This document shows positions 4,893 to 23,835 of a DNA stretch of 37,471 nucleotides, in pieces. The notes beneath the pieces are model-generated. The model was not told the origin of the DNA. It did not search any database and saw nothing but the letters and a program-made list of their open reading frames with translations. Origin of the DNA: Alphaproteobacteria bacterium (GTDB lineage Bacteria > Pseudomonadota > Alphaproteobacteria > UBA11222); assembly GCA_040081735.1 (NCBI GenBank), contig JBEBFX010000002.1, positions 1 through 37,471 on the forward strand. The letters are read 5' to 3'. Every line of letters begins with the position of its first letter. Positions within the stretch are counted from its first letter, which is position 1. Both the position numbers and the translations under genes were made by a program.

Positions 4893-4896
4893 GAGA

Positions 4897-5574: not shown

Positions 5575-5592
5575 GGGCAGTTTCCCTGTGGT

Positions 5593-6531: not shown

Positions 6532-6533
6532 GC

Positions 6534-7307
6534 TCAGCGGAACATATCGATGCGCTTGTCGCGCACCAGGGCGGCGGCGGGCGTTGGCGCATCCTGTTTG
6601 GGGGGCGTAAAGCCGCGGATAAGCACCACCGGCATGCCCTGGGATCCCTGCCCCTGCAACAGCGACCCGGCGGACGCCAGCTCATCGGCGGTGGCGGTTT
6701 CGGTGACTTCCAGACGGCGGCCGAACAGATCGGGTTCGCCGCGCAGATCATGCAGCGTGGTCAGCCCCGCCGCGCCGATGGCGATGCCGACAATGCCGTT
6801 GCGCCAGGGCCGGCCGGAACTGTCATTGATGATGATGGCGACATGAGCGCCGCACAGATCTAATAATTCCGTACGCAGACGTTGGGCCGAGGCGTCCGGG
6901 TCATAGGGCAGCAGCAGGATATTTTCACTGCCGCCGGTATTGTCGATATTGGACTGGTCGATGCCGGCATTGGCCATCACCACGCCAATGCGATGGGCGA
7001 CAATCAGCACATTTTTCTGATAGCGCACAATGTCCGATGATTCAGACAATACCGCCTGCACAAAGCGCGGATCCTTTTCCACGACGGCGGCGATTTCAAT
7101 TGCCCGCGCCGAGGGCGTGATCGTGCGCAAATCCACATACCGGTTTTCGGATTTGGAGACAATTTTTTGCGCGATCACCAGCACGTCGCCATTTTGCAGC
7201 GGCATCCCCGCCGCCAGGGCGCAGTCATGAATGATTTTGGCCAGCGCATCACCCGGCGCCACCAGCGGCATGCCGGGAATGCCGTTCAGTGTAATCGTCT
7301 GCGTCAA
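6534..7307 (-). CDS. cofE: coenzyme F420-0:L-glutamate ligase, single-domain (no C-terminal nitroreductase-like domain)
   Basis: 257 aa. TTG start at 7307 has AAGGGGGA 6-7 nt upstream. The conserved N-terminal ITLNGIPGMPLVAPGD block would be lost with the internal ATG. 1-nt gap to the fno stop. Confidence 0.88.
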   Translation of the reverse strand: MTQTITLNGIPGMPLVAPGDALAKIIHDCALAAGMPLQNGDVLVIAQKIVSKSENRYVDLRTITPSARAIEIAAVVEKDPRFVQAVLSESSDIVRYQKNVLIVAHRIGVVMANAGIDQSNIDNTGGSENILLLPYDPDASAQRLRTELLDLCGAHVAIIINDSSGRPWRNGIVGIAIGAAGLTTLHDLRGEPDLFGRRLEVTETATADELASAGSLLQGQGSQGMPVVLIRGFTPPKQDAPTPAAALVRDKRIDMFR

Positions 7308-7308
7308 G

Positions 7309-7974
7309 CTAGTCCCCCTTGCCGCTCGGATTGCCCGCAGTTCCGGTGATGCGCAGGCCCGCGCCCTCGATCTGATAGCGCTTGTTGATGCCGATCAGCA
7401 CCGAGGTCAGCGCCTCCGCCGCCACACTGTTGGCCAGCGGTCCTGCATGCCAGCCGCGCATACCGGCGGCTTCGACCAGTTCAACCACCTGCTCGCGGGC
7501 CGCCAGTTTGTCGCCGCACACCAGCACATCGCAATCAACCGGATGATCGTCGCGCAGATGACTGGCGCCGACATTCTGAAACGCCGATACGACGGTGACG
7601 CCATCGCCCAGCACGGCCTGTGCGGCAAGTGCGGCGCAGCCTTCCGGCGGCATCTGCACGCGCGCCACCCGGGGCGGCACCAGCGGCACGGTGACATCGA
7701 CCAGAATCTTGCCGGTCAGCGCGTCGCGCACGCTTTCCAGCGTCGATTTCTGATTGGCGAACGGCACGGTCAGCACCGCGATGTCGCAGGCTTTCGCCGC
7801 GCTGACATTGTCCATGCCAACCGCGCCCAGAGGTTTGGCGGCGTCCAGCGCCTTTTCCAGGGTGCGTGATCCGATGATGATTTTGTACCCGGCGCGGGAC
7901 CAGCGCACGGCCAGGCCGCCCCCCAGATCGCCGGTGCCGCCCAGAATGGCGATAGTGGGTTTATTTACTGTCAT
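7309..7974 (-). CDS. fno: NADPH-dependent F420 reductase (F420:NADP+ oxidoreductase)
   Basis: 221 aa. Rossmann N-terminus IAILGGTGDLGGGLAVRWSRAGYKIIIGSR is typical of Fno/NpdG. First gene of the minus-strand F420 operon. Confidence 0.88.
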   Translation of the reverse strand: MTVNKPTIAILGGTGDLGGGLAVRWSRAGYKIIIGSRTLEKALDAAKPLGAVGMDNVSAAKACDIAVLTVPFANQKSTLESVRDALTGKILVDVTVPLVPPRVARVQMPPEGCAALAAQAVLGDGVTVVSAFQNVGASHLRDDHPVDCDVLVCGDKLAAREQVVELVEAAGMRGWHAGPLANSVAAEALTSVLIGINKRYQIEGAGLRITGTAGNPSGKGD

Positions 7975-8086: not shown

Positions 8087-9043
8087 ATGCGCATCGGGGT
8101 TGTATTTCCGACTTACACCATTGGCAATGATCCGGGCGGCGTCCGCGATTATATTGAGACGGCGGAGGCGCTGGGTTTCAAACATATCCTGACTTTTGAC
8201 CATGTGCTGGGCGCGGGGCTGGGCACGCGGCCGGACTGGGCAGGGCCATATGATTACACCAATGCGTTTCACGAGCCGATGGTGCTGTTTGGCTTTATGG
8301 CGGCGCTGACCCGGACCATCGAACTGGTGACGGGCGTACTGATTCTGCCGCAGCGCCAAACAGCGCTGGTCGCCAAGCAGGCAGCCGAGGTGGATGTGCT
8401 CAGTAACGGGCGCTTGCGGCTGGGCCTCGGGGTCGGCTGGAACCCTGTCGAATATGAGGGCCTGGGACAGGATTTTCATAAACGCGGCCGCCGGGTGGAA
8501 GAACAGATCGCTCTGCTGCGCGCCCTGTGGGCCGATGATCTGGTTACCTTCAGGGGCGAGTTTGACACCGTCATTGATGCGGGCATCAACCCGCTGCCGG
8601 TCAACCGGCATATCCCTTTGTGGATCGGCGGCAATGCGGCGGCGGCGCTGAAGCGCATGGCGCGTATCGCCGACGGCTGGTTTCCGATCATGACGCCGGG
8701 CGACGAGAGCGCGGCGATTATCACACGGGTGCGGCAATATCTGCTGGACGCTGACCGGGGCATCAGCGATTTTGGGCCACAATTCGGCATGGATCCAATG
8801 CTGCAAAGCGGCAATAATGGTCCCCAGGAATGGGGCGCGGAAGTTGAATGGTGGAAACGCCACGGAGCCACGCATCTTTCCTTCAATACCATGAGCCTGG
8901 ATGCCATTCAGCGCGCCGCGCGGATGGGTCTGGGGATTATGGTTGATACGCTTGCCAACACCAAAAATATTAACCGGCAGGGGCCCAAAGAACATATCGC
9001 CGCGATTACACAATTCGCTGACGTGGTGAAAGGGCAGCTCTGA
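8087..9043 (+). CDS. LLM-class (luciferase-like) oxidoreductase, probably F420-dependent (Rv2161c-type), paralogue 1
   Basis: 318 aa. ATG has GGGAGG upstream. Typical LLM blocks are present: FHEPMVLFGF, VLILPQRQTALVAKQAAEVDVLSNGRLRLGLGVGWN, FHKRGRRVEEQI. It carries a roughly 24-aa C-terminal insertion relative to paralogue 2. Confidence 0.88.
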   Translation: MRIGVVFPTYTIGNDPGGVRDYIETAEALGFKHILTFDHVLGAGLGTRPDWAGPYDYTNAFHEPMVLFGFMAALTRTIELVTGVLILPQRQTALVAKQAAEVDVLSNGRLRLGLGVGWNPVEYEGLGQDFHKRGRRVEEQIALLRALWADDLVTFRGEFDTVIDAGINPLPVNRHIPLWIGGNAAAALKRMARIADGWFPIMTPGDESAAIITRVRQYLLDADRGISDFGPQFGMDPMLQSGNNGPQEWGAEVEWWKRHGATHLSFNTMSLDAIQRAARMGLGIMVDTLANTKNINRQGPKEHIAAITQFADVVKGQL

Positions 9044-9125
9044 TCCGGGCGTCGCCCTTGCGGCATGCCCCGCGCCAGTGGTAAAATAAGTTAATAACAA
9101 CATCAGCAGCAGCAGGGAGGCGGCA

Positions 9126-10010
9126 ATGCGCGTAGGGGTAATTTTTCCAACCATTTCCATCGGCAACGATCCGGGCGGCATCCGGGATTATATCCAGACG
9201 TCAGAGGCGCTGGGTTTCAAGCATATTCTGGTCTTTGACCATGTGATGGGCGCGGGCACGGCCACTCGCCCGAACTGGCGCGGACCCTACAACCATACCA
9301 ACGGCTTTCACGAGCCGATGGTGCTGTTCGGTTTTATCGCGGCGCTGACAAAGAAAATAGAAATGGCCACCGGGGTGCTGATCCTGCCGCAGCGCCAAAC
9401 CGCGCTGGTCGCCAAACAGGCGGCGGAGGTTGACGTGCTGAGCAAGGGCCGCCTGCGGCTGGGCGTCGGCATCGGCTGGAACGATGTCGAATATGAATGC
9501 CTGGGCGAGGATTTTCACAAGCGCGGCCGCCGCGTCGAGGAACAGGCGGCGCTGATGCGCGCGCTGTGGGCCAAGGAACTGGTCACCTTCGAGGGCGAAT
9601 TTGACACCATCATCGATGCGGGCATCAATCCGCGCCCCGGCCGCAAGACGATCCCGCTGTGGTTTGGCGGTAATGAGGACGCCGCGCTGCGGCGCATGGC
9701 GCGGATTGGCGATGGCTGGTTCCCGCTGTTTGGCATGGGCGACAAGGGCGCGGAACGCATTGAGCGCATGAAGGGATATCTGCGCGAAACCAATCGCGGC
9801 ATCACCGGCTATGGCCCCTATTTCGGCATGGACCCGATGCTCCAGGGCGGCGACCGCAGTCCGCAGGAATGGGCCAAAGAAGCCGAATGGTGGAAAGGCC
9901 ACGGCGCCACCCATATTTCCCTCAACACCATGACCAGCGGGCGGCACGGGGCCAAGGCGCATATCGAGGCCATCAAGCAGTTCGCCGATGTGATGGCGGA
10001 CGCGCTTTAG
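9126..10010 (+). CDS. LLM-class oxidoreductase, probably F420-dependent, paralogue 2
   Basis: 294 aa. ATG has GGGAGG upstream. Colinear with and highly similar to paralogue 1 at both protein and DNA level. Confidence 0.88.
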   Translation: MRVGVIFPTISIGNDPGGIRDYIQTSEALGFKHILVFDHVMGAGTATRPNWRGPYNHTNGFHEPMVLFGFIAALTKKIEMATGVLILPQRQTALVAKQAAEVDVLSKGRLRLGVGIGWNDVEYECLGEDFHKRGRRVEEQAALMRALWAKELVTFEGEFDTIIDAGINPRPGRKTIPLWFGGNEDAALRRMARIGDGWFPLFGMGDKGAERIERMKGYLRETNRGITGYGPYFGMDPMLQGGDRSPQEWAKEAEWWKGHGATHISLNTMTSGRHGAKAHIEAIKQFADVMADAL

Positions 10011-10025
10011 GGGCTGCGCCGCGAT

Positions 10026-10052
10026 CAGGCTGACAGTTGGTCTGTCAGCCTG
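10026..10052 (+). promoter_or_regulatory. perfect 11-bp stem / 5-nt loop hairpin between LLM paralogues 2 and 3
   Basis: CAGGCTGACAG-TTGGT-CTGTCAGCCTG, 16 nt after the TAG of paralogue 2. The downstream text AAATTATCTGGTTTTC has only a weak T run, so this is not a textbook terminator. Confidence 0.5.
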
Positions 10053-10095
10053 AAATTATCTGGTTTTCAAAGCATTCAAGCAAGGAGATGCGATC

Positions 10096-11040
10096 ATGCG
10101 TGTTGGCTTACTTTTTCCCACCCTGGACATGGGCTCGGATTTTGGTGGAATCCGCGATTACATCGAGACGGTCGAGGCGCTTGGCTATAACCACCTTCTG
10201 GTCCCCGATCATGTGATGGGCGCAGGTCTTGGCACACGGCCGGACTGGAAAGGGCCGTACAATTACACCAATCCGTTTCACGAGCCGTTTACGATGTTCG
10301 GCTATATTGCCGGGGTCACCAAGCGCCTTGAGATGGCCTCGGGGGTGCTGATCCTGCCGCAGCGGCAAACCGTGCTGGTTGCCAAACAGGCGGCGCAAAT
10401 CGATGTGATGAGCAACGGGCGATTGCGGCTGGGCGTCGGCATCGGCTGGAACACGGTTGAATATGACTGCCTTGGCAAAAACTTTCATGACCGGGGCAAG
10501 CGGCTGGAAGAACAGATCACCCTGCTGCGCGAATTGTGGGCCAGCGATCTGGTCACCTTTAACGGCGTTTACGAACAGGTTGTGGACGCGGGCATTAATC
10601 CGCGGCCGGCCAAAAATCACATTCCGGTTTGGATTGGCGCCGAAGCGCGGCCGGCCCTGCAACGGGCGGCGCGGATGGCGGACGGCTGGTTTCCGATGTT
10701 TCAACCAGGTGAAAAGGGTGCGGTAAAAATCGGGAAGATGAAGGAATATCTGCGTGACGCCAAACGCGGCTTCTCCGATCATGGCCCGCAATTCGGGATG
10801 GAGCCGTTCGTGCATGCCGGCCGCGGCTTTTCCGCGAACATCGCCCCGCCGGAAAAAGACCCGCAATTCTGCTCCAACACCAACGGTCCCCAGGAATGGG
10901 CGAAAGAGGCCCATTGGTGGCAGGACCACGGGGCGACCCATATTTCGCTTAACACCATGAATTCAGACCTGCACGGGCCAAAGGCACAGATCGAGGCGGT
11001 CACCAAATTCGCCAACGCGATGGCGCTGGAAAAGGTCTAG
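10096..11040 (+). CDS. LLM-class oxidoreductase, probably F420-dependent, paralogue 3
   Basis: 314 aa. ATG has AAGGAG upstream. It shares the same conserved blocks but is more diverged, with an insertion (VHAGRGFSANIAPPEKDPQFCSNTNG) before the conserved PQEW motif. Confidence 0.88.
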   Translation: MRVGLLFPTLDMGSDFGGIRDYIETVEALGYNHLLVPDHVMGAGLGTRPDWKGPYNYTNPFHEPFTMFGYIAGVTKRLEMASGVLILPQRQTVLVAKQAAQIDVMSNGRLRLGVGIGWNTVEYDCLGKNFHDRGKRLEEQITLLRELWASDLVTFNGVYEQVVDAGINPRPAKNHIPVWIGAEARPALQRAARMADGWFPMFQPGEKGAVKIGKMKEYLRDAKRGFSDHGPQFGMEPFVHAGRGFSANIAPPEKDPQFCSNTNGPQEWAKEAHWWQDHGATHISLNTMNSDLHGPKAQIEAVTKFANAMALEKV

Positions 11041-11415: not shown

Positions 11416-13227
11416 ATGGGAAATTTTCTTGTTTCGCTTCTGATTATTGCCCTTGCCGCGCTGGGCATCGGATCTGCATACGCCGCGCCGCGTCATGGTG
11501 TCGCCATGCATGGGGAGGTTCAGCAAGGCCCGGACTTCACGCATTTCAGCTATGTCAATCCAGCGGCGCCGAAAGGCGGCGCGCTGATTCTGGGTGAACA
11601 AGGCGGGTTTGACAATCTCAATCCATTCACCGTGCGCGGCGTTACGCCGCTGGGCGTGCGGGAATGGGTGTTCGAAAGCCTGCTAAAGCGCAGCAATGAC
11701 GAGGCGTTTGCGCTGTATGGCTGGGTGGCCAGGGCTGTCGAGATGGCAGCCGACCGCACCTGGGTCAGTTTCACCCTTGATCCGCGCGCGCGTTTTTCAG
11801 ATGGCGCGCCGGTTCGCGTGGAGGATGTTATTTTCTCGGCGGAAATCCTGCGCGCAAAGGGACGCCCCAATCACCGCAGCTATTATGCAAAAATCACGCG
11901 CATCAGCCAGCCGGCGCCGGGCCAGGTCCGTTTTGAGTTTGATCGTGAAAATATTGATCGCGAAATGCCGCTGATCATCGGCCTGATGCCGATCCTCTCA
12001 AAGGCCTGGTATGGAGATCAGGATATCAGCGCCCCCGGCCTGCGCCTGCCTCTGGGTTCGGGTCCCTATCGTGTCGGCGATGTCTCACCGGGCCGCTCTA
12101 TCGTCTATGTGCGTAACCCGGATTACTGGGCGGCGGATTTGCCGGTCAATCGCGGGCAGAATAATTTTGATACGATCCGGGTTGATTTTTACCGTGATGA
12201 AAATACCGCATTCGAGGCGTTCAAGGCCGGGCAGTTTGATCTGTGGGAAGAAAAAGACCCGGCCCGATGGTCGCGCGCCTATGATTTCAAAGCGCTGCGG
12301 GAAGGTGCTGTCCGGCGCGCGGCCCTTCCTCAAGGCCGGCCATCCGGATTGCGGGGCTTCGTGTTCAATACGCGCCGGGCGCCCTTTGACGATATCCGCG
12401 TGCGTCAGGCGTTAAATTTAGTGTTCGATTTTGAATGGGTCAATCGCAGTTATTTTCATGGCGTGTACCGCCGCACCCGCAGCCTGTTTGACAACAGCAA
12501 TCTTGCCGCCTCCGGGCATGCAGCCAGTCCGCAGGAAGAAGCAATGCTGGCCCCGTTTGCAGGGGTTGTTCCGGTGGAAATAATGCAGAAGGGCTATGCG
12601 CCGCCTGTCAGTGATGGGTCGGGACACAACCGCGATGGGGCCAGACGGGCGCTCGCTTTATTGCGTGACGCGGGGTGGGCTGTGAAGGATGGACAGATGA
12701 TCAAGGCTCAAGGCGGCTTGGCTTTGCAATTCGAAATTCTGCTGGCCCGGCCGGAAGAGGAAAAGCTGGCGCTGGCTTTCGCCAGGGCGGCGCAACGTGT
12801 AGGGATAATTATCCATGTGCGCACGGCCGACGCCAGCCAGTATGAAGAAAGGCTGCGCAATTTTGATTTCGATATGATCCTGTATGACTGGTACGCCTCG
12901 CTGTCGCCGGGTAACGAGCAGAAATATTACTGGGGGTCGCAGGCGGCGGACACGCCCGGCGCCCGCAACTATCCCGGTATCAAAAGCCCCGCCATGGACG
13001 CCATGATCGCCCATCTGCTGGCCGCAAACAGCGAGGCGGAATTTATTCCCGCAGTGCGCGCCATGGACCGGGTGCTGATGTCCGGAACCTATGTCATTCC
13101 GCTGTATTATCAGCCAACGGATAATATCGCGTACCGGGCGCATCTGGGCATGCCCGGTCGCGCGCCGCTCTACGGATTTGATATTACCGGCTGGTGGGGT
13201 GGCCGGCGGCCACCCCCCAGGCCCTGA
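11416..13227 (+). CDS. ABC transporter substrate-binding protein, family 5 (YejA / oligopeptide-type), orphan
   Basis: 603 aa. Signal peptide MGNFLVSLLIIALAALGIGSAYA|AP. Size and sequence text fit family-5 periplasmic binding proteins. No permease or ATPase genes are adjacent. Confidence 0.8.
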   Translation: MGNFLVSLLIIALAALGIGSAYAAPRHGVAMHGEVQQGPDFTHFSYVNPAAPKGGALILGEQGGFDNLNPFTVRGVTPLGVREWVFESLLKRSNDEAFALYGWVARAVEMAADRTWVSFTLDPRARFSDGAPVRVEDVIFSAEILRAKGRPNHRSYYAKITRISQPAPGQVRFEFDRENIDREMPLIIGLMPILSKAWYGDQDISAPGLRLPLGSGPYRVGDVSPGRSIVYVRNPDYWAADLPVNRGQNNFDTIRVDFYRDENTAFEAFKAGQFDLWEEKDPARWSRAYDFKALREGAVRRAALPQGRPSGLRGFVFNTRRAPFDDIRVRQALNLVFDFEWVNRSYFHGVYRRTRSLFDNSNLAASGHAASPQEEAMLAPFAGVVPVEIMQKGYAPPVSDGSGHNRDGARRALALLRDAGWAVKDGQMIKAQGGLALQFEILLARPEEEKLALAFARAAQRVGIIIHVRTADASQYEERLRNFDFDMILYDWYASLSPGNEQKYYWGSQAADTPGARNYPGIKSPAMDAMIAHLLAANSEAEFIPAVRAMDRVLMSGTYVIPLYYQPTDNIAYRAHLGMPGRAPLYGFDITGWWGGRRPPPRP

Positions 13228-13396
13228 AATGCCGCTAAAATAGCGTCTGGGCTGCTTTTTGCCGCAAAATTAAGCAGCAATGGCGCATCAGCCGGGATAG
13301 GCCCCAGCGTCTGAGCTGCTATAAATACTTGTTCCCTCCATGGCACGAAGGTTGCTATTCATAATCGACGGTGTTTTTTATGGATCAGTAACCCCC

Positions 13397-14848
13397 ATGC
13401 AACCCGAAGCTAAGCCGGCTTTCTTCGATGAAATGGGCGCGCCTGCGGCGTGCAGGCCGCAATACCGCCTGATCAGCGACTGGCTTTCGGCAATTCCCAC
13501 GGAAACACTTGAGATCAAACGCCGCGAGGCGGAATTTATATTCCGCCGCACCGGCATCACCTTCGCGGTTTATTCAGAAGGCGGCGATACGGAACGCATC
13601 ATTCCGTTTGACATTATCCCGCGCGTGCTGGACCAGGCGGAATGGGATTATCTGTCGCGCGGCATTATCCAGCGGGTCCGCGCCCTGAACGCCTTTATCG
13701 GCGATGTGTATAACGCGCAGGAATTTATTCGCGCCGGCAAAATTCCCGCTGAACTGGTATTGCACAATCCCTGTTTCATCTCGGAGATGATGCTGCTGCC
13801 GGTGGCGCAAAACATCTACACACACATCTCCGGCATTGATATCGTGCGCGTCGGGCCTGGGGAATTTTATGTGCTGGAGGATAATTGCCGCACGCCGTCC
13901 GGGGTTTCCTACATGCTGGAAAACCGCGAAGTCATGCGGCGGCTGTTTCCGGACCTGGTCAATCGCGCCCGTATCAAACCGATTTCGCATTATCCGGAAG
14001 ATCTGCTTGAAACCCTGCGCTCGGTGGCGCCAGGCAATTGCGCGGGCGACCCGGTGGTGGCGCTGCTCACGCCCGGCAGCTTCAACAGCGCCTATTATGA
14101 ACATTCGTTTCTGGCCGATGAAATGGGCATAGAATTGGTCGAAGGGCTTGATCTGGTGGTGCAGGACATGCAGGTATTCATGCGCACCACCACGGGCTTG
14201 CAGCGTGTCGATGTGCTGTACCGCCGTCTGGATGACGCCTTTCTTGATCCGCTGGTGTTTCGTCCGGATTCCCTGCTTGGCGTGCCCGGGCTGATGGCGG
14301 CCTATCGCGCCGGTAATGTGACTATCGCCAACGCCGCAGGAAGCGGCATCGCCGATGACAAGGCGATTTACACTTTTGTGCCGGAGATGATCCGCTTTTT
14401 TCTGGGGGAAGAACCTATCCTGCGCAATGTGCCCACCTGGCGCTGCGATATCCCATCCGAGAGGGCCTATGTGCTGGAGCATCTGCACGAACTTGTGGTC
14501 AAGGACGTGCATGGATCAGGCGGTTACGGCATGCTGGTGGGGCCGCATGCGAGCAGTGCCGAACGCGCCGTGTTTGCGGAGAAAATCCGGGCGGCGCCGC
14601 ACCGGTATATTGCCCAGCCAACGCTCAGTCTTTCAACCTGTCCGACTTTTGTCAAAAACGGCGTGGCGCCGCGTCATGTGGATTTGCGCCCGTTCGTGCT
14701 GATGGGCCGCGAAATCAGGCTTGTGCCCGGCGGACTTACCCGTGTAGCCCTGCGCGAAGGATCGCTGGTGGTGAACTCCAGCCAGGGGGGCGGCACCAAG
14801 GACACCTGGATTATCGAAGAAGACACTGACGCGGAGGCGAAAGCGTAA
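13397..14848 (+). CDS. circularly permuted ATP-grasp type 2 protein (DUF404/DUF407 class)
   Basis: The ORF is open from 13340. ATG 13397 (MQPEAKPAFFDEM...) is preferred because homologues start close to the FDEM motif. Neither start has a strong SD. Typical blocks are present: GITFAVY, ERIIPFDIIPRV, ALNAFIGDVY. Confidence 0.85.
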   Translation: MQPEAKPAFFDEMGAPAACRPQYRLISDWLSAIPTETLEIKRREAEFIFRRTGITFAVYSEGGDTERIIPFDIIPRVLDQAEWDYLSRGIIQRVRALNAFIGDVYNAQEFIRAGKIPAELVLHNPCFISEMMLLPVAQNIYTHISGIDIVRVGPGEFYVLEDNCRTPSGVSYMLENREVMRRLFPDLVNRARIKPISHYPEDLLETLRSVAPGNCAGDPVVALLTPGSFNSAYYEHSFLADEMGIELVEGLDLVVQDMQVFMRTTTGLQRVDVLYRRLDDAFLDPLVFRPDSLLGVPGLMAAYRAGNVTIANAAGSGIADDKAIYTFVPEMIRFFLGEEPILRNVPTWRCDIPSERAYVLEHLHELVVKDVHGSGGYGMLVGPHASSAERAVFAEKIRAAPHRYIAQPTLSLSTCPTFVKNGVAPRHVDLRPFVLMGREIRLVPGGLTRVALREGSLVVNSSQGGGTKDTWIIEEDTDAEAKA

Positions 14849-14851
14849 GCG

Positions 14852-15793
14852 ATGCTAAGCCGCACGGCGGAAAATCTGTACTGGCTGGCGCGGTATGTGG
14901 AGCGCGCGGAAAATATCGCGCGGCTGCTGGATGTTACCCTGCGCATGGCAAGCCTGCCGCAGCAAAAGGCCGGCGGCGACAGCGAATGGCGCTCGACCGT
15001 TATCGCTTCGGGGTGCGAGGAAAGTTTTTTTGCCGGCAACGAGCACCCGACTGCGGAAGCGGTCATTTATTATCTGGCGCGCGATCCGGACAATCCGTCG
15101 TCGATTGTTTCGTGTCTGGAAACCGCGCGTAACAATGCGCGCATGGTGCGCACGGGTCTCAGCATCAGCATGTGGGAGGCGATTAACGCCACCTGGATCG
15201 AACTTAATACGCTGGGTGAGGATGATTTCAAGCCGGAGCGTATAGGGCGGTTCCTGGACTGGGTGAAAGAACGTTCCCTGCTGTTCGGGGGCACGGTGGC
15301 AAGCACCATGCTGCGCAGCGACGCCTTCTGGTTCAGCCGCCTGGGCATGTCGATTGAACGCGCCGATAACACGGCGCGCATCATCGATGTCAAATACAAC
15401 GTACTGCTGCCGGCCTATGAAACGGTTGGCGGTTCAATGGATTATTATCAGTGGGCGTCCATGCTGCAATCCGTATCGGCGCTGCGCGCCTATCACTGGG
15501 TCTATCGCGACCGGGTCAAGCCGTGGCTGGTGGCGGAACTGCTGATTTTAAAACCTGAAATGCCGCGTTCTCTGGCCTATTGCATCAGCGATGTGAACCG
15601 GCAGCTGGAAAGTCTGGCCAACGCCTATGGGGACAGCGGCGAATGCCACCGGCTGGCAGGCCAGATGTATGCAAAGCTGCGCTACGGCAAGATCGACAAA
15701 ATTCTGGCTCAGGGCCTGCATGAATTTCTTACGCAATTTGTCGATGACACCAAGGATCTGGGTGAAGAAATCACCCGGCAATATCTGATCTGA
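14852..15793 (+). CDS. alpha-E domain protein (DUF403)
   Basis: 313 aa. The hallmark N-terminus MLSRTAENLYWLARYVERAENIARLLDV is present. 3-nt gap after the ATP-grasp gene. Confidence 0.88.
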   Translation: MLSRTAENLYWLARYVERAENIARLLDVTLRMASLPQQKAGGDSEWRSTVIASGCEESFFAGNEHPTAEAVIYYLARDPDNPSSIVSCLETARNNARMVRTGLSISMWEAINATWIELNTLGEDDFKPERIGRFLDWVKERSLLFGGTVASTMLRSDAFWFSRLGMSIERADNTARIIDVKYNVLLPAYETVGGSMDYYQWASMLQSVSALRAYHWVYRDRVKPWLVAELLILKPEMPRSLAYCISDVNRQLESLANAYGDSGECHRLAGQMYAKLRYGKIDKILAQGLHEFLTQFVDDTKDLGEEITRQYLI

Positions 15794-15812
15794 TAAATCG
15801 GGATGCACCGCC

Positions 15813-16634
15813 ATGCGCATACGCGTCACTCATACGACCCGGTATCGATATGACCAGAATGTTTCGTACTCGGCGCAGCTGATCCGGCTTCACCCGCGCA
15901 GCCATCAGGGCCAGCAGGTTATTTCATGGCTGGTGACGGGCGGCGACGGACGATCGCTGCCGTCAACCTATGATGGCTACGGCAATATTCTGCACATGCT
16001 GACCCGAGACCAGATGCACGACGCGGCCAGTATTATTTCTGCGGGAGAGGTCGAAACAACCGATACTTCGGGCATTATCAAGGGCGCCGTGGAGACCCTG
16101 CCCTGTATTTATTTCCTCCGGCAAACGGAATACACCCAGCCCGATGCGGCGATACTGGCCCTGGCCCACACGGCGGGCGGCTTTGACGCGATTGAGCAGC
16201 TGCACCAGTTAATGGCGCGCATCCGGGAAAGCGTGGCTTATGAAACCGGCACAACGGCAAGCGGCACTACGGCGGCCGAGGCGCTGGCCCATGGCAGCGG
16301 CGTGTGCCAGGACCATACCCACATCTTTCTGGCGGCAGTGCGCAGCATTGGCTATCCTGCCCGTTATGTTTCGGGCTATCTTCACGGGGCCGGCGGCGCG
16401 CAGGGCGGCGATGCTGGTCATGCCTGGGCCGAGGTTCATACGGAAGGGCTGGGCTGGGTTAGTTTTGATGTCGCCAACGGTATATGTCCGAACGAAAATT
16501 ATGTTAGGATCGCCGTCGGGCTGGACTTTCAGGAGGCCGCCCCCATAAGGGGCATCCGGCGCGGCGAGGGTACGGAGGAAATGACGGTGTCCGTGGATAT
16601 AAGTCTGCCGGACGCGCAACAACAACAACAATAA
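15813..16634 (+). CDS. transglutaminase-like cysteine protease family protein with Bact_transglu_N-type N-terminus
   Basis: 273 aa. The N-terminus MRIRVTHTTRYRYDQ is typical. The Cys-His-Asp triad context is intact (GSGVCQDHTHIF, GHAWAEV, FDVANG). It ends in five glutamines encoded by (CAA)5. Confidence 0.85.
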   Translation: MRIRVTHTTRYRYDQNVSYSAQLIRLHPRSHQGQQVISWLVTGGDGRSLPSTYDGYGNILHMLTRDQMHDAASIISAGEVETTDTSGIIKGAVETLPCIYFLRQTEYTQPDAAILALAHTAGGFDAIEQLHQLMARIRESVAYETGTTASGTTAAEALAHGSGVCQDHTHIFLAAVRSIGYPARYVSGYLHGAGGAQGGDAGHAWAEVHTEGLGWVSFDVANGICPNENYVRIAVGLDFQEAAPIRGIRRGEGTEEMTVSVDISLPDAQQQQQ

Positions 16635-16655
16635 CAAAACTGCAAGAGTGGTATC

Positions 16656-17399
16656 ATGACCTATTGCGTCGGACTGTGTCTGAAAGAAGGAATTGTAATG
16701 CTGTCCGATACCCGCACCAATGCAGGGGTCGATAACATTTCCACATTCTGCAAAATGTCGGTGTTTGAGAAAACCGGCGACCGCATGCTGGCGATGATGA
16801 CGGCGGGCAATCTTGCCGTTTCCCAGGCCGTGCAGGGTTTGCTGAACGAGGGTATCGAAAACAAGGCCACCGGTGAAATGGAAACCCTGTTTACCGTGCC
16901 CAACATGTTCCGCGCGGCCCAGCTGGTCAGCGAGGCGGTGCGTCAGGTGTTCTTCATCCATGGCGGCGTGATGCAGGCGCAGGGCATTGGCTTTGACGTG
17001 GGCATCATGCTCGGCGGGCAGATCGGCAAGGGCGCCTTGCATATGTATCAGTTTTATTCGGCGGGTAATTTTATCGAATCGTCCGAGGACACGCCGTTCC
17101 TGCAGCTTGGCGAACACAAATATGGCAAGCCGATCCTGGACCGCTCCGTTGGCTATGATCTGCCGCTGTATGACGCGATCAAGATGGTGCTGCTTTCAAT
17201 GGATTCGACCCTGCGCAGCAATCTTTCCGTCGGTCTGCCGCTGGATCTGCTGGTCTATAAATGCGACGCCCTGCGCGCGGGCATCCGCCGCCGCATCACC
17301 GATGACGAGCCGTACTTCCGCTATGTAAGGGAGACCTGGTCAAGCGCCCTGCGCGAAGCGCATCAGCATATTACGCGCCCCGACTGGGCCAGGGATTGA
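16656..17399 (+). CDS. proteasome-type peptidase, Anbu (ancestral beta-subunit) family
   Basis: 247 aa. The N-terminus is MTYCVGLCLKEGIVMLSDTRTNAG, so Thr becomes residue 1 after Met removal. Asp17 and Lys32 sit at proteasome-like catalytic spacing. Fourth gene of the operon. Confidence 0.85.
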   Translation: MTYCVGLCLKEGIVMLSDTRTNAGVDNISTFCKMSVFEKTGDRMLAMMTAGNLAVSQAVQGLLNEGIENKATGEMETLFTVPNMFRAAQLVSEAVRQVFFIHGGVMQAQGIGFDVGIMLGGQIGKGALHMYQFYSAGNFIESSEDTPFLQLGEHKYGKPILDRSVGYDLPLYDAIKMVLLSMDSTLRSNLSVGLPLDLLVYKCDALRAGIRRRITDDEPYFRYVRETWSSALREAHQHITRPDWARD

Positions 17400-17458: not shown

Positions 17459-17944
17459 ATGACGGACATCACCACGCAAACCCTGCTGGATCGCGCAGCA
17501 ATTAGCGATGTGTTTCACAATTACGCCAGCGGCGTTGATATGCGCGACTGGGTTTTATTCCGCAGCCTCTTTACCGATGACGTGCACGCGGATTTTTCCT
17601 CGATGACGCCGGGCTTTATCGTCAGCGGCGCCGATCAATGGACGGCTCAGGTCAGCCGCGCCATCGGCGCGCTGGACGCCACCCAGCATATCATCACCAA
17701 TCATGTGCATGTGATTGACGGCGATCGCAGCAAAAGCCGGTCCTATCTGCAAGCGCAACATGTGCTGCGCAGCGCGGCCGGCGCGCCGGACATTCATTAC
17801 ATGATTGGCGGCTATTATGTGTACGACATGGTGCGCGCGGGCAAGGCGTGGAAAATCAGCAACTACAGTCTGACGCTGACCTGGCATACGGGCGATCCGG
17901 AAATTTTCCGGATGGGGATTGCGCGCAAAAAAGCCGCCGGATAA
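17459..17944 (+). CDS. SnoaL-like / NTF2-family protein
   Basis: Start moved to ATG 17459, which has GGAGGA 8 nt upstream. The text MTDITTQTLLDRAAISDVFHNYASGVDMRDWVLFRSLFTDDV... is typical of SnoaL_4-type proteins. 59 nt downstream of the Anbu gene. Confidence 0.75.
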   Translation: MTDITTQTLLDRAAISDVFHNYASGVDMRDWVLFRSLFTDDVHADFSSMTPGFIVSGADQWTAQVSRAIGALDATQHIITNHVHVIDGDRSKSRSYLQAQHVLRSAAGAPDIHYMIGGYYVYDMVRAGKAWKISNYSLTLTWHTGDPEIFRMGIARKKAAG

Positions 17945-17961: not shown

Positions 17962-19329
17962 CTACCACGGCGTGCGGGCCAGGGCTGCGGGATGCGGCGG
18001 GTGCAGCCGCGCGCCGCGCCCGGGGAACAGTTTTTCGCGGATCGTGCCGGGCTGATATTCGCGCTGCATGCGGCCGCGCTGCTGCAGAATGGGGACGACG
18101 CCCTCGATAAAGTCTGCGAACGAGCCGGGCAGCGTAGCGTAGGACAGATTGAAGCCGTCCACGCCCGCATCGATCCAGTCTTCCAGCCGGTCGGCGATCT
18201 GTTCGGTTGCGCCGACCATTACCGGCCCAGCGCCGCCCATGCCAATGCGTCTGGCCAGGCTGCGCATGGTCCATTTCTGGCCGTCCTTGCCGGGCGCCAG
18301 CGCGCGCAGGATGGACTGCACGGCGTTGGTCTGGACCATTTCAATGGGCGCGTCGGGATCAAGCGCGCTGAAATCGATGCCGGACCAGCCGCCCAGCAGC
18401 GACAGCGCGCCCTCATAATCGACCTGTTCGCTATATTCCTCGAATTTGCGCCGCGCCTCCGCCTCGGTGCCGCCGGTGATGATTTTCAGATAGGCAAAGC
18501 CAAGAACATCTTCGGGGTTGCGGCCCTGCGCCTGCAAGGCCGCGTGCACGTCGCGCATATATTGCCCGGCGCCTTCGGGCCGCGAGGAGACGCAAAACAC
18601 GCATTCGGCGTGTTGCGCCCCGAACGCGATGCCGCGCGGGCTTGCGCCCGCCTGAAACAGCAGCGGCGTGCGTTGCACCGATGGCTCGCACAGATGGCAG
18701 CCATGCAGCTTGTAATATTTGCCGTCGTGATTGACATCGCGGATTTTTGCCGGGTCGGCGTAAATGCCGCGCGCCCGGTCCTGTATGACCGCGTCGTCCG
18801 CCCAGCTGTTTTCCCATAGCTGATAGCACAGCCGGGCATATTCATCGGCCATGTCATAGCGCTCATCATGCTCGGGGATACCGGGCAGGCCAAAGCTGCG
18901 CCCGGTGCTTTCCAGATACGAGGTGACGATGTTCCACGCCACCCGGCCCTTGGTGAGATGATCGAGCGTGCTGATCAGGCGCGCGAACATGAACGGGTGG
19001 TACTGGATCATCGCGCTGGTGAACCCGAACCCCAGATGTTCGGTGACGCTGGCCATGGCCGGGATCAGCAACATCGGATCATTGACCGGAAACTGCGTGG
19101 CGGCCCGGACCGAGGCGTCGCGGTTGCCGCCATAGACATCATAGACGCCAACCACATCGGCCAGAAACAGCCCGTCAAAGCAGCCTTTTTCGAGCAGTTT
19201 TGCAATCTCCAGCCAGTGATCCAGGTCAGTGTACCGGACAGAGCTGTCGCCCGTGACCCGCCACATGCCGGGCGATTGATGCACCACGCAATTCATCATG
19301 AATGCGTTGAAATACATGCGTTTTTTCAC
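17962..19329 (-). CDS. LLM-class FMN-dependent monooxygenase, NtaA/SnaA/DszA family
   Basis: The N-terminus (V)KKRMYFNAFMMNCVVHQSPGMW is characteristic of the family. GTG 19329 has GGGGGAAG 7 nt upstream. ATG 19317 and the track start 19362 are alternatives. Confidence 0.85.
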   Translation of the reverse strand: MKKRMYFNAFMMNCVVHQSPGMWRVTGDSSVRYTDLDHWLEIAKLLEKGCFDGLFLADVVGVYDVYGGNRDASVRAATQFPVNDPMLLIPAMASVTEHLGFGFTSAMIQYHPFMFARLISTLDHLTKGRVAWNIVTSYLESTGRSFGLPGIPEHDERYDMADEYARLCYQLWENSWADDAVIQDRARGIYADPAKIRDVNHDGKYYKLHGCHLCEPSVQRTPLLFQAGASPRGIAFGAQHAECVFCVSSRPEGAGQYMRDVHAALQAQGRNPEDVLGFAYLKIITGGTEAEARRKFEEYSEQVDYEGALSLLGGWSGIDFSALDPDAPIEMVQTNAVQSILRALAPGKDGQKWTMRSLARRIGMGGAGPVMVGATEQIADRLEDWIDAGVDGFNLSYATLPGSFADFIEGVVPILQQRGRMQREYQPGTIREKLFPGRGARLHPPHPAALARTPW

Positions 19330-19519
19330 GGCAAAACTTCCCCCTGTAAGGCCCCGGGTCATGGGGCGCTCAGGTTAACATTATTCGGGGGTGTCAGGAC
19401 AGGAATGATGTTATGGCGGGCTGCACCGCGCGTATGAGGGCGATGTATCGGGAGGGGGCCGGGGAAAATTAAAGGGTAACGTCCAATTTAATGGCCAGGT
19501 TTGCCGGTTAATTCTGGTT

Positions 19520-19963
19520 TTACAAAGAGGACGTCCCGGGATGGTTGTCAGTGACAATGGCGGCGAACTCACCAGCAACGCCATCCCTGCATGGGCCGAT
19601 GAAGCCCAGGCTGGCTGGCGTTACATCGCGCCGGGCAAGCCGATGCAGAATGCCTGCATTGAGCGCTTCAACGGCAGGCTGCGCGATGAAAAGCTGAACG
19701 GGACCCTGTTCAGCACACTGCATCAAGTGCGCGTTGAACTGGCGGCCTGGAGGAACGGCTACAACACCAAAAGACCACACCCGGCGCCCGGCTGGCTGAC
19801 GCCATCCGAGTTCGCCAATCACCACGCCCGGAGTAAGCAAGGGCCACCGGGCGCTGCGCAACCTGACCGCTCCGCGCCCATGGCCATTGCACCAACCGCC
19901 CAACAGGGCATAATCAACCCTCAGAGCGAACTCAAAAATGGATAGAAGGTTGGGGCAAGGTCA
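19520..19963 (+). mobile_element. 5'-truncated IS3-family (IS407-like) element: C-terminal part of the OrfB transposase plus the right inverted repeat
   Basis: Translation ...[90 protein letters not shown] is the rve-core C-terminus only. The sequence ...TGGGGCAAGGTCA ending at 19963 resembles an IS407-type IR terminus (TGACC...GGTCA). The left boundary is approximate. No OrfA or left IR is present. Confidence 0.8.
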
Positions 19964-20586: not shown

Positions 20587-21354
20587 CTATTGAATCCTGA
20601 AATTCACCGGAATGTCGAAAGACGCCTCCGATTTGCCCAGTTCCGGCGGCAGTGACGGAAAGGGCGCAGCGGAGCGAACGGCGGCTGTAGCGGCTGCGGC
20701 GAGGCGTGCAGGAGTTTGGGTCATCGGGATGATACGGTTCACGGCGCCGCTGGAGGCGATCTTTACGCGCAGAACGATGGTTCCCTCCTCATTACGGCGC
20801 AAGGACAGCGAAGGATATTGCTTGTGCGCGTCGATCATCTCGCGCATCCGTGTTATGTATTCCGTGGCGATCCAGTCGCTGACAGGCATGACCGCCGCTT
20901 CCGGAGGGTCCGGGCGCGCTTGCGAAGTGGCGGGTTGCCTGCTGCCACGCGGAAGCGGCGCCGGGTGGCGCAGCTTTCGCGTGGCTTCCGGCTGAACAAT
21001 CTCAGGGGCAGGTCCAGTCATACCTGGCAACGCGATTGACACTTGCCGTGGTGCGGGCCTTGCGTCAATGGGCGCGCGCTCAGGCGGCGGCGCAACGGAA
21101 GTCGATGGCGTGGTCTCTCCGGCCGGTGCGATTTCTGCTGGCATTGCCTGCTGCTGTGAAGGTGCGGGGGTGAATGCGACCAATTCCACGTTGATGATCT
21201 CGGGTTTAAAATGCATTTGCGGGCGTGGCAGTCCGATGATCGGCGCGATCATCAGGGCGTGCAGGCCGATGGACAGCGAGACAGGCAGGAGATCGCGCCC
21301 GGTCCTTGGTTCGTTACCGCGTCGCGACAGAATATAATTCAACCGGATCGCCAT
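20587..21354 (-). CDS. tonB: energy transducer TonB
   Basis: Start moved to ATG 21354, which has GAGGAG 6 nt upstream; the track start is a GTG. It has an N-terminal TM helix, a Pro-rich spacer and a TonB C-terminal domain (EGTIVLRVKIASSGAV...FDIPVNFRIQ). Confidence 0.85.
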   Translation of the reverse strand: MAIRLNYILSRRGNEPRTGRDLLPVSLSIGLHALMIAPIIGLPRPQMHFKPEIINVELVAFTPAPSQQQAMPAEIAPAGETTPSTSVAPPPERAPIDARPAPRQVSIALPGMTGPAPEIVQPEATRKLRHPAPLPRGSRQPATSQARPDPPEAAVMPVSDWIATEYITRMREMIDAHKQYPSLSLRRNEEGTIVLRVKIASSGAVNRIIPMTQTPARLAAAATAAVRSAAPFPSLPPELGKSEASFDIPVNFRIQ

Positions 21355-21495
21355 CGTGCTCCTCACTGGCTCCACTAAGCCGGGCGGGCCTTCACTGACG
21401 CTTCCCGGCTCAACAGTCGACCGGCCCAGATTACAACCCGGCGGGCTGCCTTATGCATCTAATAAAGCGGTAACGCGGCGCTATTTAAGCATGTT

Positions 21496-23835
21496 CTAGA
21501 AGATGGCAGTCAATCCCACCCAAGCGCTCCGCGGCTGGCCCGGGCCGGCAAACCGGTTATCCGTAAACCCGGGAAACACATCCGTCGGATCCGCATATAT
21601 GCCGAATGTTTCGTATTTCTTGTCGAAGACGTTATTGACACGCAGCTTGATCTGTATGGCGTCCGTAATCTGGCGGGTGGACCAGAAATTGAACACGGCG
21701 GCGCCGTTTAGCGGATCCTGGCTGTTGTTCTCGTCGCCTCTGAAGTAGCGGCTTGATGTGATGACGGACTCCGCAGCCACGACCCACCGGTCTGTGATCG
21801 CGTATCCGAGGCCGAGCTTGGAGGTGTGCTTGGGGACGTTGGGGATGCGGTCGCCAGGGCTTATATCGATATTACCGTCACTGTCTGCCGAAGGATTGTC
21901 CGGGCTGAGAATTGTGAGCGCGCTTTCGAAAGTGGCGCGCACGAATGCGTAATTGGCGTACCAGTTCCACTGCGCCAGATCGCCTTGAACGCCAAATTCG
22001 AGGCCGGTGCGCTCAGTCTCACCGGAATTTTGAAAGAATCCGGAGCCTACTACGGGGCCGGCGCTGACAAATATGATGTCGTCGTGATTGCGCGTGCGGA
22101 AGCCTGATAGCGACCATTCAACATTGTCCGCCTGCTTACCGAATGTGTAACGGGCGCGTACACCCCCCTCAATGGTGCGCGAGATCACCTGGTCGAGCGG
22201 CGGGTCGGACACGAAAGCGTTGGGAAAGCGGCATGGCTGGTTCGGGTCGGCGCAGCTGAGTTCGGCGGGGGTCGGAATGCGGTTGGCTTCTGCATAGACG
22301 CCATAAAGATTGATCTGCGGAGCAAGCTGATAGGTCATGCCGATGGACGGATTGGCCCGCGAGAAACGATGTGAGCCGTCGAGCGCGGTACCGAACCGGT
22401 CATTCAAATCAACCTCCGCGAGGTTGAAGCGCGCGGCGGCGGTGACATTCAACCGGTCGGTCAGCGTCAACGTGTCGGAGATATAAAGGCCGTAATAGAT
22501 GTTGCGGGCATTAAGGCGCGTAATGAAATCCCCGGTTCCGAGAAAAATGCCGGCGCCGGACACGGATCGATCGGTGTTAAGGACGCCGAGTTCGGTATGG
22601 CTCCGGAACTTGGTCCATCCCGCGTCGATTGCGCTGCCGACGAGCAACGAATTCCTCATCCCGAAGAGAGGCTTGTCAAGAGTCGCCTGGAGCGATCCGC
22701 CGGCGCCGTTGGTTATGGTGCGCTGGCGGTTCAGGTTACCGTTACCGACGGCCGCGGCGCTGATCAGATTGCCATTGATATCCTCAACTTCTTCTTCTTC
22801 ATCACCGGGTTCTTCGCAGAGAAACGCCGGCGGCGCTTCAAAACCCTCGCAGGGGCCGTTGTCGCTATCATCGCCATTGATCGTATTGCGCTTGTTGTAG
22901 CGAAAATAGACGCTGCTTTGGAACGACAGGGCATGGGCCATTTCGATATTGCCGCGCAACGCCAACATCACCAGGGTGTTTTTGGTCGTATCGGGCGAGG
23001 TGAAAATTGCCGAACGGTCCGCAGCCAGAAGTTCGGCAGGCGCCGGGCCGTTGCCGGTGAGATCGGATCTCACATAGGTCAACCCGGCCCCAAGCTCATG
23101 ATTGTCACCGCGCGATGCGGCGTCGGCATAGCCTTGCACAAGCCGCGATGGCGAGTCATCGCGCCAGCCGTTTTCCCGCACGCCGTTGATGCCGGCATAG
23201 ACACCCAGTTTTCCCGTGTTCATGCCGTATTCCCCGGCGCCCTGAACACGGCCGAACGATCCGCCCTCAAGCCTGACGGTCGAATCCGTGAAATTGAAAC
23301 CATTGTTCATCTCGGCGGTGACCGCCCCGCCCAGCGCATTCAGCCCAAAGACCGGGTTGGTGCCCTGGATCACCTGCAGCCGTCTGATCGCAAAAATTGG
23401 CATTAAATCCCATTGAACGGTGTCCCCGAACGGTTCGTTGATCCGAACGCCGTTCTGATAGATCGCCAGCCCCTGAGGTTCACCCAGAAGCGGGGACGCT
23501 GTAAAACCGCGAATGGTTATGTTTGGCTGAAACGGATTGTTCTGGCTGTCCACCCGCGACACCCCGGCGCCGCGCAGCTCCAGAATGTCGGCGGGCGTAC
23601 GCGGATCGCCGGCCCGGATATCACTACGGTCGAGTGTGATGACGTTGACGGGTACCCGATCGCGGTCCAGACCACTGCCCTGCACCGGGGTCACACCGAT
23701 CACGTTGATCTCGGGGACTGCATAAATGGAGGCGCCGGACTCCTGGGCAACCACGCGGCCTGGATCGTAAACTGCGGCGATTGACGCACATAAAGCAAGG
23801 CCAAGCTGGATGCGGCGCACAAGACAATGGAACAC
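21496..23835 (-). CDS. TonB-dependent outer-membrane receptor, substrate unknown
   Basis: 779 aa. GTG start has GGGAG upstream. It has a signal peptide, plug-domain text (NPFQPNITIRGF, AIYQNGVRINEPFGD) and a C-terminal aromatic terminus ...WVGLTAIF. No N-terminal FecA-type signalling extension is present. Confidence 0.88.
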   Translation of the reverse strand: MFHCLVRRIQLGLALCASIAAVYDPGRVVAQESGASIYAVPEINVIGVTPVQGSGLDRDRVPVNVITLDRSDIRAGDPRTPADILELRGAGVSRVDSQNNPFQPNITIRGFTASPLLGEPQGLAIYQNGVRINEPFGDTVQWDLMPIFAIRRLQVIQGTNPVFGLNALGGAVTAEMNNGFNFTDSTVRLEGGSFGRVQGAGEYGMNTGKLGVYAGINGVRENGWRDDSPSRLVQGYADAASRGDNHELGAGLTYVRSDLTGNGPAPAELLAADRSAIFTSPDTTKNTLVMLALRGNIEMAHALSFQSSVYFRYNKRNTINGDDSDNGPCEGFEAPPAFLCEEPGDEEEEVEDINGNLISAAAVGNGNLNRQRTITNGAGGSLQATLDKPLFGMRNSLLVGSAIDAGWTKFRSHTELGVLNTDRSVSGAGIFLGTGDFITRLNARNIYYGLYISDTLTLTDRLNVTAAARFNLAEVDLNDRFGTALDGSHRFSRANPSIGMTYQLAPQINLYGVYAEANRIPTPAELSCADPNQPCRFPNAFVSDPPLDQVISRTIEGGVRARYTFGKQADNVEWSLSGFRTRNHDDIIFVSAGPVVGSGFFQNSGETERTGLEFGVQGDLAQWNWYANYAFVRATFESALTILSPDNPSADSDGNIDISPGDRIPNVPKHTSKLGLGYAITDRWVVAAESVITSSRYFRGDENNSQDPLNGAAVFNFWSTRQITDAIQIKLRVNNVFDKKYETFGIYADPTDVFPGFTDNRFAGPGQPRSAWVGLTAIF

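Follow-up and report, generated by a model that had tools for sequence, protein, structure and literature searches.

A 37,471-nucleotide stretch of the alphaproteobacterial contig JBEBFX010000002.1 (hereafter the window) carries, at positions 13397–17399 of the forward strand, four adjacent genes whose sequences identify the locus, with near certainty, as a complete and apparently functional chromosomal Anbu-1 operon of an uncultured alphaproteobacterium. Anbu is a candidate proteasome ancestor, and its operon is among the most widespread bacterial clusters without a known substrate, product, or physiological role. Operons of this kind have been described previously (Valas and Bourne 2008; Fuchs et al. 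2017); the present copy is a standard member and adds no new kind of system. On balance, we favor, as somewhat more likely than not, an Anbu-1 operon under sigma-54 control, the products of which may ligate and then cleave their substrates in a nitrogen-starvation turnover. The locus offers three handles: a sigma-54 promoter with candidate activator sites (under which conditions to study the system), a Gln tail on one of the proteins (which part and which peptides to examine), and the repeated loss of a catalytic Cys or of a whole gene in relatives (which component is dispensable).

The four-gene operon and its products

The genes, and the Gln tail encoded at the end of the third, are as follows:

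13397–14848, + strand: circularly permuted ATP-grasp gene, COG2308 type, 483 residues, assigned by Pfam and by an orthologue in the PDB
14852–15793, + strand: alpha-E gene, COG2307 type, 313 residues, all-helical product, assigned by Pfam Alpha-E
15813–16634, + strand: transglutaminase-like gene, COG1305 type, 273 residues, assigned by Pfam, triad Cys165-His203-Asp219
16617–16631, + strand: Gln tail QQQQQ, five CAA codons, at the C-terminus of the transglutaminase-like protein (...SLPDAQQQQQ)
16656–17399, + strand: gene of the Anbu-1 proteasome-type Thr peptidase, 247 residues, Thr1 codon at 16659–16661

An initial annotation, made from the sequence alone, had proposed four same-strand genes separated by 3, 19, and 21 nucleotides (nt). 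The open reading frame (ORF) list and a reading of the junctions give exactly these gaps between genes 1/2, 2/3, and 3/4, all on the + strand, and the four family assignments were upheld by hidden Markov model (HMM), PDB-sequence, and comparative tests, with genes 1–3 assigned by Pfam and gene 4 matched to Anbu chains in the PDB. No internal sigma-70-like promoter was found within the operon; the sole sigma-70-like site lies 3′ of Anbu, ahead of a SnoaL_4 gene. Terminator-like sites occur in numbers at or below shuffle expectation. These results, the short gaps, and the one upstream promoter described below lend indirect support to co-transcription of the four genes. Rfam gives no match within or near the operon, and no AAA+ domain is present among the Pfam annotations of the window ORFs. 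The PADLOC defense models produced no match except a marginal one to DrmC (E 0.0025, 59 residues of alpha-E), and a defense-system reading was dropped because PADLOC lends it no support.

The arrangement recurs widely. A scan of one genome per species yielded 80 Anbu loci, and the 67 of these with at least 5 kb of DNA upstream of Anbu were used to count gene orders. The quartet grasp, alpha-E, transglutaminase-like, Anbu appears in identical order in 42 of the 67; in 12 the transglutaminase-like gene is absent, leaving grasp, alpha-E, and Anbu, and in 13 Anbu occurs without the triad. Triads of grasp, alpha-E, and transglutaminase-like genes are also found without Anbu. In the relatives, a median of 10 nt separates the grasp gene from alpha-E, 15.5 nt separate alpha-E from the transglutaminase-like gene, and 69 nt separate the latter from Anbu. 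By these sequence comparisons the four-gene arrangement is not due to chance. The system is very widespread, with more than 8000 database relatives each for Anbu, alpha-E, and the ATP-grasp protein; the nearest Anbu in our genome collection is 66% identical to that of the window. None of the flanking genes of the window is conserved with the operon across the 80 loci, and clustering of the flanking ORFs of these loci revealed no universal fifth gene, just lineage-specific synteny. Because the flanking genes vary from locus to locus, we take these four genes as the unit.

Valas and Bourne, who named Anbu, defined its operon as COG2308, COG2307, COG1305, and Anbu, and pointed out that some genomes with COG2308 have no Anbu (PMC3235984). 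Our locus thus matches the comparative-genomics quartet with which the initial annotation had equated it (PMC3235984, PMC5666114). It shares with the described operon (PMC3235984) and with Pseudomonas aeruginosa Anbu-1, PDB 5LOX (PMC5666114), the four families, their order and strand, the absence of an AAA+ partner and of a propeptide, Asp17/Lys32, and the S1 pocket; no essential difference was found, the source here being an uncultured alphaproteobacterium.

The initial annotation had recognized the last gene as Anbu from its MTYCVG start, with Thr followed by Asp17 and Lys32. All of these features are present. Thr1 comes directly after Met and a propeptide is absent, and Thr2, Asp18, and Lys33 in Met-based numbering (Thr1, Asp17, and Lys32 of the mature chain) are conserved in 80–81 of 81 aligned sequences, the window included. 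A phmmer search of the PDB matched every one of the five solved Anbu sequences (5LOY, 5NYJ, 5NYF, 5NYW, and 5LOX; E 3e-80 to 5e-64), in line with the annotation's statement that Anbu structures exist. No HslV, 20S, or other PDB chain was matched by gene 4 at E ≤ 0.01, HslV being an assignment that the annotation had itself named as one that would overturn its reading. In Pfam, gene 4 has no match above threshold, the Proteasome family (E 0.0011) falling below its gathering score.

In a gap-free alignment to chains starting at Thr1, the S1 pocket T20-F30-T48-L52-S55 is identical to that of P. aeruginosa Anbu 5LOX. This pocket, narrow and amphiphilic with Thr and Ser placed for hydrogen bonds, defines Anbu-1 as opposed to Anbu-2 with its basic pocket (PMC5666114), and because the window protein has the identical pocket we assign it to Anbu-1. 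Anbu forms a dodecameric helical open ring, which Fuchs et al. interpret in terms of processive protein degradation, and its Thr1 reacts with epoxomicin and MG132; no interactor was found for it, and co-expression with the operon proteins changed nothing (PMC5666114). To judge from its sequence identity to solved Anbu proteins, the window Anbu likely assembles into the same dodecameric helical open ring. A public gene call on the contig starts Anbu at Met15 (16698 instead of 16656), giving a 233-residue protein; we consider 16656 the right start because the 233-residue call removes the catalytic Thr1. We note that several database relatives of Anbu are also 233 residues long (e.g., P0010–P0012, P0015, P0017, and P0018 of our set), and the start-site error looks systematic.

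The ATP-grasp protein matches Pfam CP_ATPgrasp_2 (E 6e-165) and CP_ATPgrasp_1 (E 1e-146) and retains all 110 columns that are at least 97% conserved among orthologues. PDB 3N6X, deposited as a "putative glutathionylspermidine synthase", is its solved orthologue (E 2e-188), and sequence and profile searches of the PDB returned nothing beyond it. An AlphaFold2 model with a predicted local distance difference test score (pLDDT) of 72.8 superposes on 3N6X with a template modeling score (TM-score) of 0.83–0.88. After 3N6X, the Foldseek neighbors are eukaryotic glutathione synthetases, Escherichia coli YgiC, "ligase Cp1B", and glutathionylspermidine and trypanothione synthetases (E 4e-9 to 1e-3), and RimK is a marginal structural match (E about 0.1). 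Apart from RimK, these families use ATP to join a carboxylate to an amine through an acyl-phosphate, their substrates being small peptides or amines. The model therefore points to a predicted carboxylate-amine ligase that is not, at the sequence level, a member of the neighboring families. Among its closest structural neighbors is a 2025 entry, PDB 9CJN, "Ligase Cp1B" (E 1.9e-7, TM-score 0.50), the chemistry of which could hint at the class of substrates used by the window ligase.

The second protein matches Pfam Alpha-E over its full length (E 4e-103) and has at its start the motif quoted in the initial annotation, MLSRTAENLYWLARYVERAEN. Internally duplicated, it consists of two helical units of ∼150 residues; these halves are homologous (hhalign probability 95%, E 2.5e-8) and each bear an ERAxNxARxxDV motif; the ER pairs E17-R18 and E169-R170 are conserved in 59–61 of 61 sequences. 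The AlphaFold2 model is all-helical (pLDDT 85.8, predicted TM-score 0.86). Foldseek found no significant fold relative in the PDB (best E 0.69, TM-score <0.3), and the PDB profile search was empty, so that structure offered no function to transfer. Since the alpha-E gene is almost constantly adjacent to the ligase gene, we infer that its product is a partner subunit of the ATP-grasp ligase.

The transglutaminase-like protein matches Pfam Bact_transglu_N (E 1.5e-18) and Transglut_core (E 5.7e-22) and aligns to PDB 3ISR (E 1.4e-11). The Cys-His-Asp triad reported in the initial annotation corresponds to Cys165, His203, and Asp219, which align to the 3ISR core and to orthologues, and the annotation's broader view that the catalytic residues are intact held as well, no substitution appearing upon proper alignment with orthologues. 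The catalytic Cys is intact in the window, but of the 41 operon-linked orthologues 11, spread over several genera, have Pro, Ala, Asp, Val, or Gly in its place (loci L009, L012, L029, L034, L035, L038, L044, L053, L054, L059, and L060), and in three of these the His is replaced as well. To judge from these substitutions, the Cys-less orthologues look like pseudo-enzymes retained in the operon. With the Cys replaced in these 11 and the gene missing from 12 of the 67 loci, catalysis by this protein is dispensable in many lineages.

The C-terminus of the same protein is rich in Gln. Across the 41 orthologues, 27% of the residues in the last 10 positions are Gln, versus 3% in the rest of the protein; the corresponding tails of the other three operon proteins contain 3–9%. 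A Gln lies within the last two residues in 34 of 41 genome relatives and in 77 of 80 metagenome relatives, the latter having been retrieved by a pattern that contains the catalytic Cys. The tails end in Q or in Q followed by S, N, A, or G, and their length varies among close relatives (QQQQQ, QVQQ, QLQQQ). The tail is found in 28 of 30 Cys-containing versus 6 of 11 Cys-less orthologues (Fisher p = 0.0096, phylogeny uncorrected). It also occurs in triads without a downstream Anbu gene and thus tracks the triad rather than Anbu. The idea that the Gln codons form a translational sensor coupled to Anbu was dropped for the same reason, as the tail is found where no Anbu follows. Transglutaminases use Gln as their acyl donor, papain-fold deamidases act on it, and Pup is activated at a C-terminal Gln. 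By analogy, the tail is plausibly a built-in substrate or pseudo-substrate.

A sigma-54 promoter and candidate activator sites

Three elements were located upstream of the ATP-grasp gene:

13230–13246, + strand: candidate upstream activator site 1, TGCCGCTAAAATAGCGT, ∼129 nt ahead of where transcription is predicted to begin, at about 13366–13368
13260–13276, + strand: candidate upstream activator site 2, TGCCGCAAAATTAAGCA, of the form TGC-N11-GCA, preceding the -24 element by 81 nt
13341–13356, + strand: sigma-54 (-24/-12) promoter, TGGCACgaaggTTGCT, TGGCAC-N5-TTGCT, 41 nt ahead of the start codon at 13397

The motif TGGCAC-N5-TTGC is matched perfectly at 13341–13355, and the T that completes TTGCT follows at 13356. 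This is the single match in the 37-kb window on either strand, even when one mismatch is allowed; the chance expectation for a perfect match is 0.22 per window. When the intergenic region was aligned with those of three related sub-clades, in which alpha-E is 83–99% identical, TGGCA...TTGCT proved invariant within a surrounding region of 71% mean identity. We also scanned 58 loci in other genera for sigma-54-like sites scoring at least 9 of 11 within 200 nt upstream of the grasp gene. Such sites precede 14 of the 58 orthologous operons versus 3 of 58 on the reverse complement (Fisher p = 0.0036), and they occur in 2.7% of random windows. These observations make it fairly probable that the operon is under sigma-54 control. 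They also bear on the first codon of the ATP-grasp gene: an in-frame ATG at 13340 was rejected in favor of 13397 because it overlaps the -24 element of the promoter and because the database gene call, at 483 residues, agrees with the later start.

Sites 1 and 2 (TGCCGCTAAAATA at 13230 and TGCCGCAAAATTA at 13260) form a direct repeat with 30-nt spacing within a conserved block. The core G..AAAATA of site 1 is kept in relatives despite their diverged intergenic DNA, and in three separate lineages a TGS-N11-SCA element precedes the -24 GG by 76–86 nt. We treat both sites as candidate activator-binding sites, as a lead only. A further direct repeat, AGCGTCTGrGCTGCT, occurs at 13242–13256 and 13306–13320 (14 of 15 bases identical, 64 nt apart) and flanks the candidate sites; as a regulatory element it was discounted because it is not conserved in relatives (loci L085 and L089).

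The operon was the most upregulated gene set in nitrogen-limited Pseudomonas putida (note added in proof, PMC3235984; also PMC5666114), and a sigma-54 promoter fits this published induction. Taking the promoter and the P. putida report together, activation by an NtrC-type enhancer-binding protein upon nitrogen limitation would be the most economical reading. The initial annotation had held that the substrates, the ligase product, and the trigger were all undefined. For function this holds in the literature to 2017; for the trigger it does not wholly hold, given the published P. putida induction and the promoter found here. In the literature covered, which extends to 2017, neither PMC3235984 nor PMC5666114 mentions a sigma-54 promoter, the activator sites, or the Gln tail.

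Proposed mechanism and competing explanations

Our favored explanation would work as follows. The four genes would be transcribed as a single transcript, fired at the sigma-54 promoter under nitrogen limitation by an enhancer-binding activator, most likely NtrC. The ATP-grasp protein with alpha-E would convert a carboxylate to an acyl-phosphate and then join it to an amine, as befits the structural class of glutathione and glutathionylspermidine synthetases, and both the Thr1 peptidase Anbu and the transglutaminase-like protein, with its Cys-His-Asp triad, would act on amide bonds of one substrate pool. The net role would be the turnover of peptides or proteins in nitrogen starvation, with the ligase marking or building the substrate and the two hydrolases cleaving it, and the Gln-rich tail would probably be part of the mechanism as built-in substrate or pseudo-substrate. 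We offer this ligate-then-cleave route to nitrogen scavenging tentatively, as one possible chemistry for the operon.

Several observations weigh against it. Anbu was without activity on standard peptide substrates (PMC5666114). A recognizable sigma-54 site precedes only about one-quarter of the orthologous operons, so that either sigma-54 control is not universal or our scoring was too strict, and the window contains neither rpoN nor ntrC. The NtrC-type label of the upstream sites rests on a TGC-N11-GCA-like consensus, which we take to be that of NtrC, and is a lead only. The four proteins need not share a substrate, since Anbu is missing from some triads, the transglutaminase-like gene from 12 of 67 loci, and the Cys from 11 of 41 orthologues. 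Finally, for this locus, the operon reading is built on computation.

A rather doubtful alternative puts the same enzymes to a different use. The ATP-grasp protein and alpha-E would make a small metabolite with an amide linkage, for instance a peptide resembling glutathione or a conjugate of a peptide with an amine, and the transglutaminase-like protein, and possibly Anbu, would serve as amidases, with no protein being tagged or degraded. The parallel is E. coli glutathionylspermidine synthetase/amidase (GspSA, PDB 2IO7–2IOB), in which a ligase is paired with a papain-like Cys hydrolase; structural similarity of the window ligase to GspSA and the glutathione synthetases was detected by Foldseek (E 4e-9 to 1e-4). 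More generally, small peptides or amines are the substrates of all the characterized enzymes that are structurally nearest to the ligase (E 4e-9 to 1e-3), and the depositors of 3N6X named it a putative glutathionylspermidine synthase. Also in its favor are the inactivity of Anbu on standard proteasome substrates (PMC5666114) and, in the nearest clade, a gene for a periplasmic peptide/opine-type binding protein just upstream. The likeness to GspSA is limited, however: TM-scores are 0.35–0.56, the window hydrolase is transglutaminase-like rather than CHAP and is a separate protein, and GspSA has no counterpart of alpha-E or Anbu. Membership of the GspS synthetase family with a CHAP amidase was not found at the sequence level, Pfam giving CP_ATPgrasp only and the PDB searches 3N6X only. 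Moreover, Anbu is a multisite ring that binds proteasome inhibitors and is read as a processive degradation machine (PMC5666114), a Gln-rich protein tail has no obvious place in a small-molecule pathway, and the binding-protein gene is not conserved beyond one clade.

An unlikely proposal is that the operon tags proteins in the manner of Pup. The Cys of the transglutaminase-like protein would deamidate or activate its own Gln tail, the ATP-grasp protein with alpha-E would join the tail or a fragment of it to target amines, and Anbu-1 would hydrolyze the products. Reportedly, Iyer et al. (2009) predicted from a comparative study that these genes form a peptide-tagging system. Conservation of the tail is strong (34/41 and 77/80), and the tail tends to vanish with the catalytic Cys (28/30 versus 6/11, p = 0.0096), but that association is uncorrected for phylogeny and several of the Cys-less cases are related. 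ATP-grasp relatives ligate at C-terminal or side-chain carboxylates; RimK and the tubulin-tyrosine-ligase enzymes are generally known examples of ATP-grasp ligases that extend a particular protein at its C-terminus, although the structural match to RimK is marginal and the tail as ligase substrate is conjecture here. The narrow, hydrogen-bonding S1 pocket of Anbu-1 could fit Gln or Glu. Against such tagging, the tail is carried by a 273-residue enzyme rather than by a small tag, it is present in Anbu-less triads, neither an AAA+ unfoldase nor a Pup-like small ORF was found in the window, and co-expression left Anbu unaltered (PMC5666114).

Set beside the Pup-proteasome system of actinobacteria as it is generally known, the operon likewise groups the genes of an ATP-dependent carboxylate-amine ligase, of an enzyme of amidase type, of a protein with a C-terminal Gln, and of a Thr peptidase of the proteasome family. 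It differs in having an ATP-grasp in place of a glutamine-synthetase-like ligase and in bearing the Gln tail on a 273-residue protein, and no members of the families of Pup, PafA/Dop, the AAA+ protein Mpa, or the alpha and beta subunits were found in the window. The likeness would be one of functional analogy only, not of membership.

In its boldest form, the proposal casts the Gln tail as the common substrate by which all four enzymes would be linked: produced under NtrC/sigma-54 control during nitrogen starvation, it would be deamidated or activated by the Cys active site, ligated by the ATP-grasp protein with alpha-E to amines on target proteins or to further residues, and cleaved by Anbu-1 after Gln or Glu. 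We regard this as improbable. Substrates of this Gln or Glu type are not known to have been in the standard panels on which Anbu was tried. If the idea were true, proteobacteria would have their own version of pupylation, assembled from unrelated folds, the inactivity of Anbu in vitro would be explained, and the chemistry of the system could be reconstituted.

It is very improbable that the four genes are functionally unrelated neighbors by descent, or a decaying relic. There are lineages with Anbu alone or with no transglutaminase-like gene; nonetheless, the genes stay in order and closely spaced across many genera, all conserved columns and catalytic residues are retained with full-length HMM coverage, and a single conserved promoter precedes the genes, so that the conservation data already contradict this view. 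That the last gene encodes HslV, a 20S beta subunit, or another Ntn hydrolase can be dismissed: a sub-threshold Pfam Proteasome match (E 0.0011) and a weak archaeal beta-subunit match (20 bits against a cutoff of 224) are outweighed by a PDB search that yields Anbu chains only and nothing else at E ≤ 0.01, which refutes the assignment, by the lack of a propeptide, and by the lack of HslU or any other AAA+ gene nearby.

Surroundings of the operon in the window

Directly upstream of the operon, at 11416–13227 on the + strand, is an SBP_bac_5 gene of the peptide/nickel/opine type, which encodes a signal peptide and has no adjacent permease genes. Its position upstream of the operon is kept in the closest clade (loci L082 and L085–L088) and not in the next relatives (L089 and L090), and an SBP_bac_5 gene in the same orientation is not conserved in the 80 genome loci. 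On the other side of the operon are two further genes:

17459–17944: SnoaL_4 gene, downstream of Anbu
17962–19362, - strand: NtaA-type monooxygenase gene

The SnoaL_4 and NtaA-type genes, and the F420-type luciferase-like genes described below, were rejected as operon partners because they are not conserved with it. Synteny with a 97%-identical contig (L081) stops just past the NtaA-type gene. A 134-residue ORF at 19541–19945 (+) contains just the C-terminal rve_3 integrase core and is a truncated insertion sequence transposase remnant.

RadC-like (JAB-type) and methionine aminopeptidase genes lie 1–3 kb upstream of the operon in 17–18 of the genome loci, those inspected being from Hyphomicrobiales. 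Methionine aminopeptidase is the enzyme that exposes Thr1 of Anbu. The recurrence is probably lineage synteny.

A coenzyme F420 biosynthesis cluster occupies 2463–7974 (-) and comprises a CofG/H-type radical-SAM fusion of 809 residues, CofC, CofD, the CofE ligase, and an F420-dependent NADP oxidoreductase; its presence on an alphaproteobacterial contig is notable. Divergent from it, at 8087–11040 (+), are three tandem luciferase-like oxidoreductase genes; the one scanned with NCBIfam (10096–11040) scores as F420-type. At 445–2085 (-) the window encodes a 546-residue protein in which a SlipAM (surface lipoprotein assembly modifier) domain is combined with a TPR region. The sole RNA gene found in the window is a tRNA-Ser (GCT) at 23867–23959 (-), just upstream of a TonB-dependent receptor/TonB gene pair at 21496–23835 and 20587–21375.

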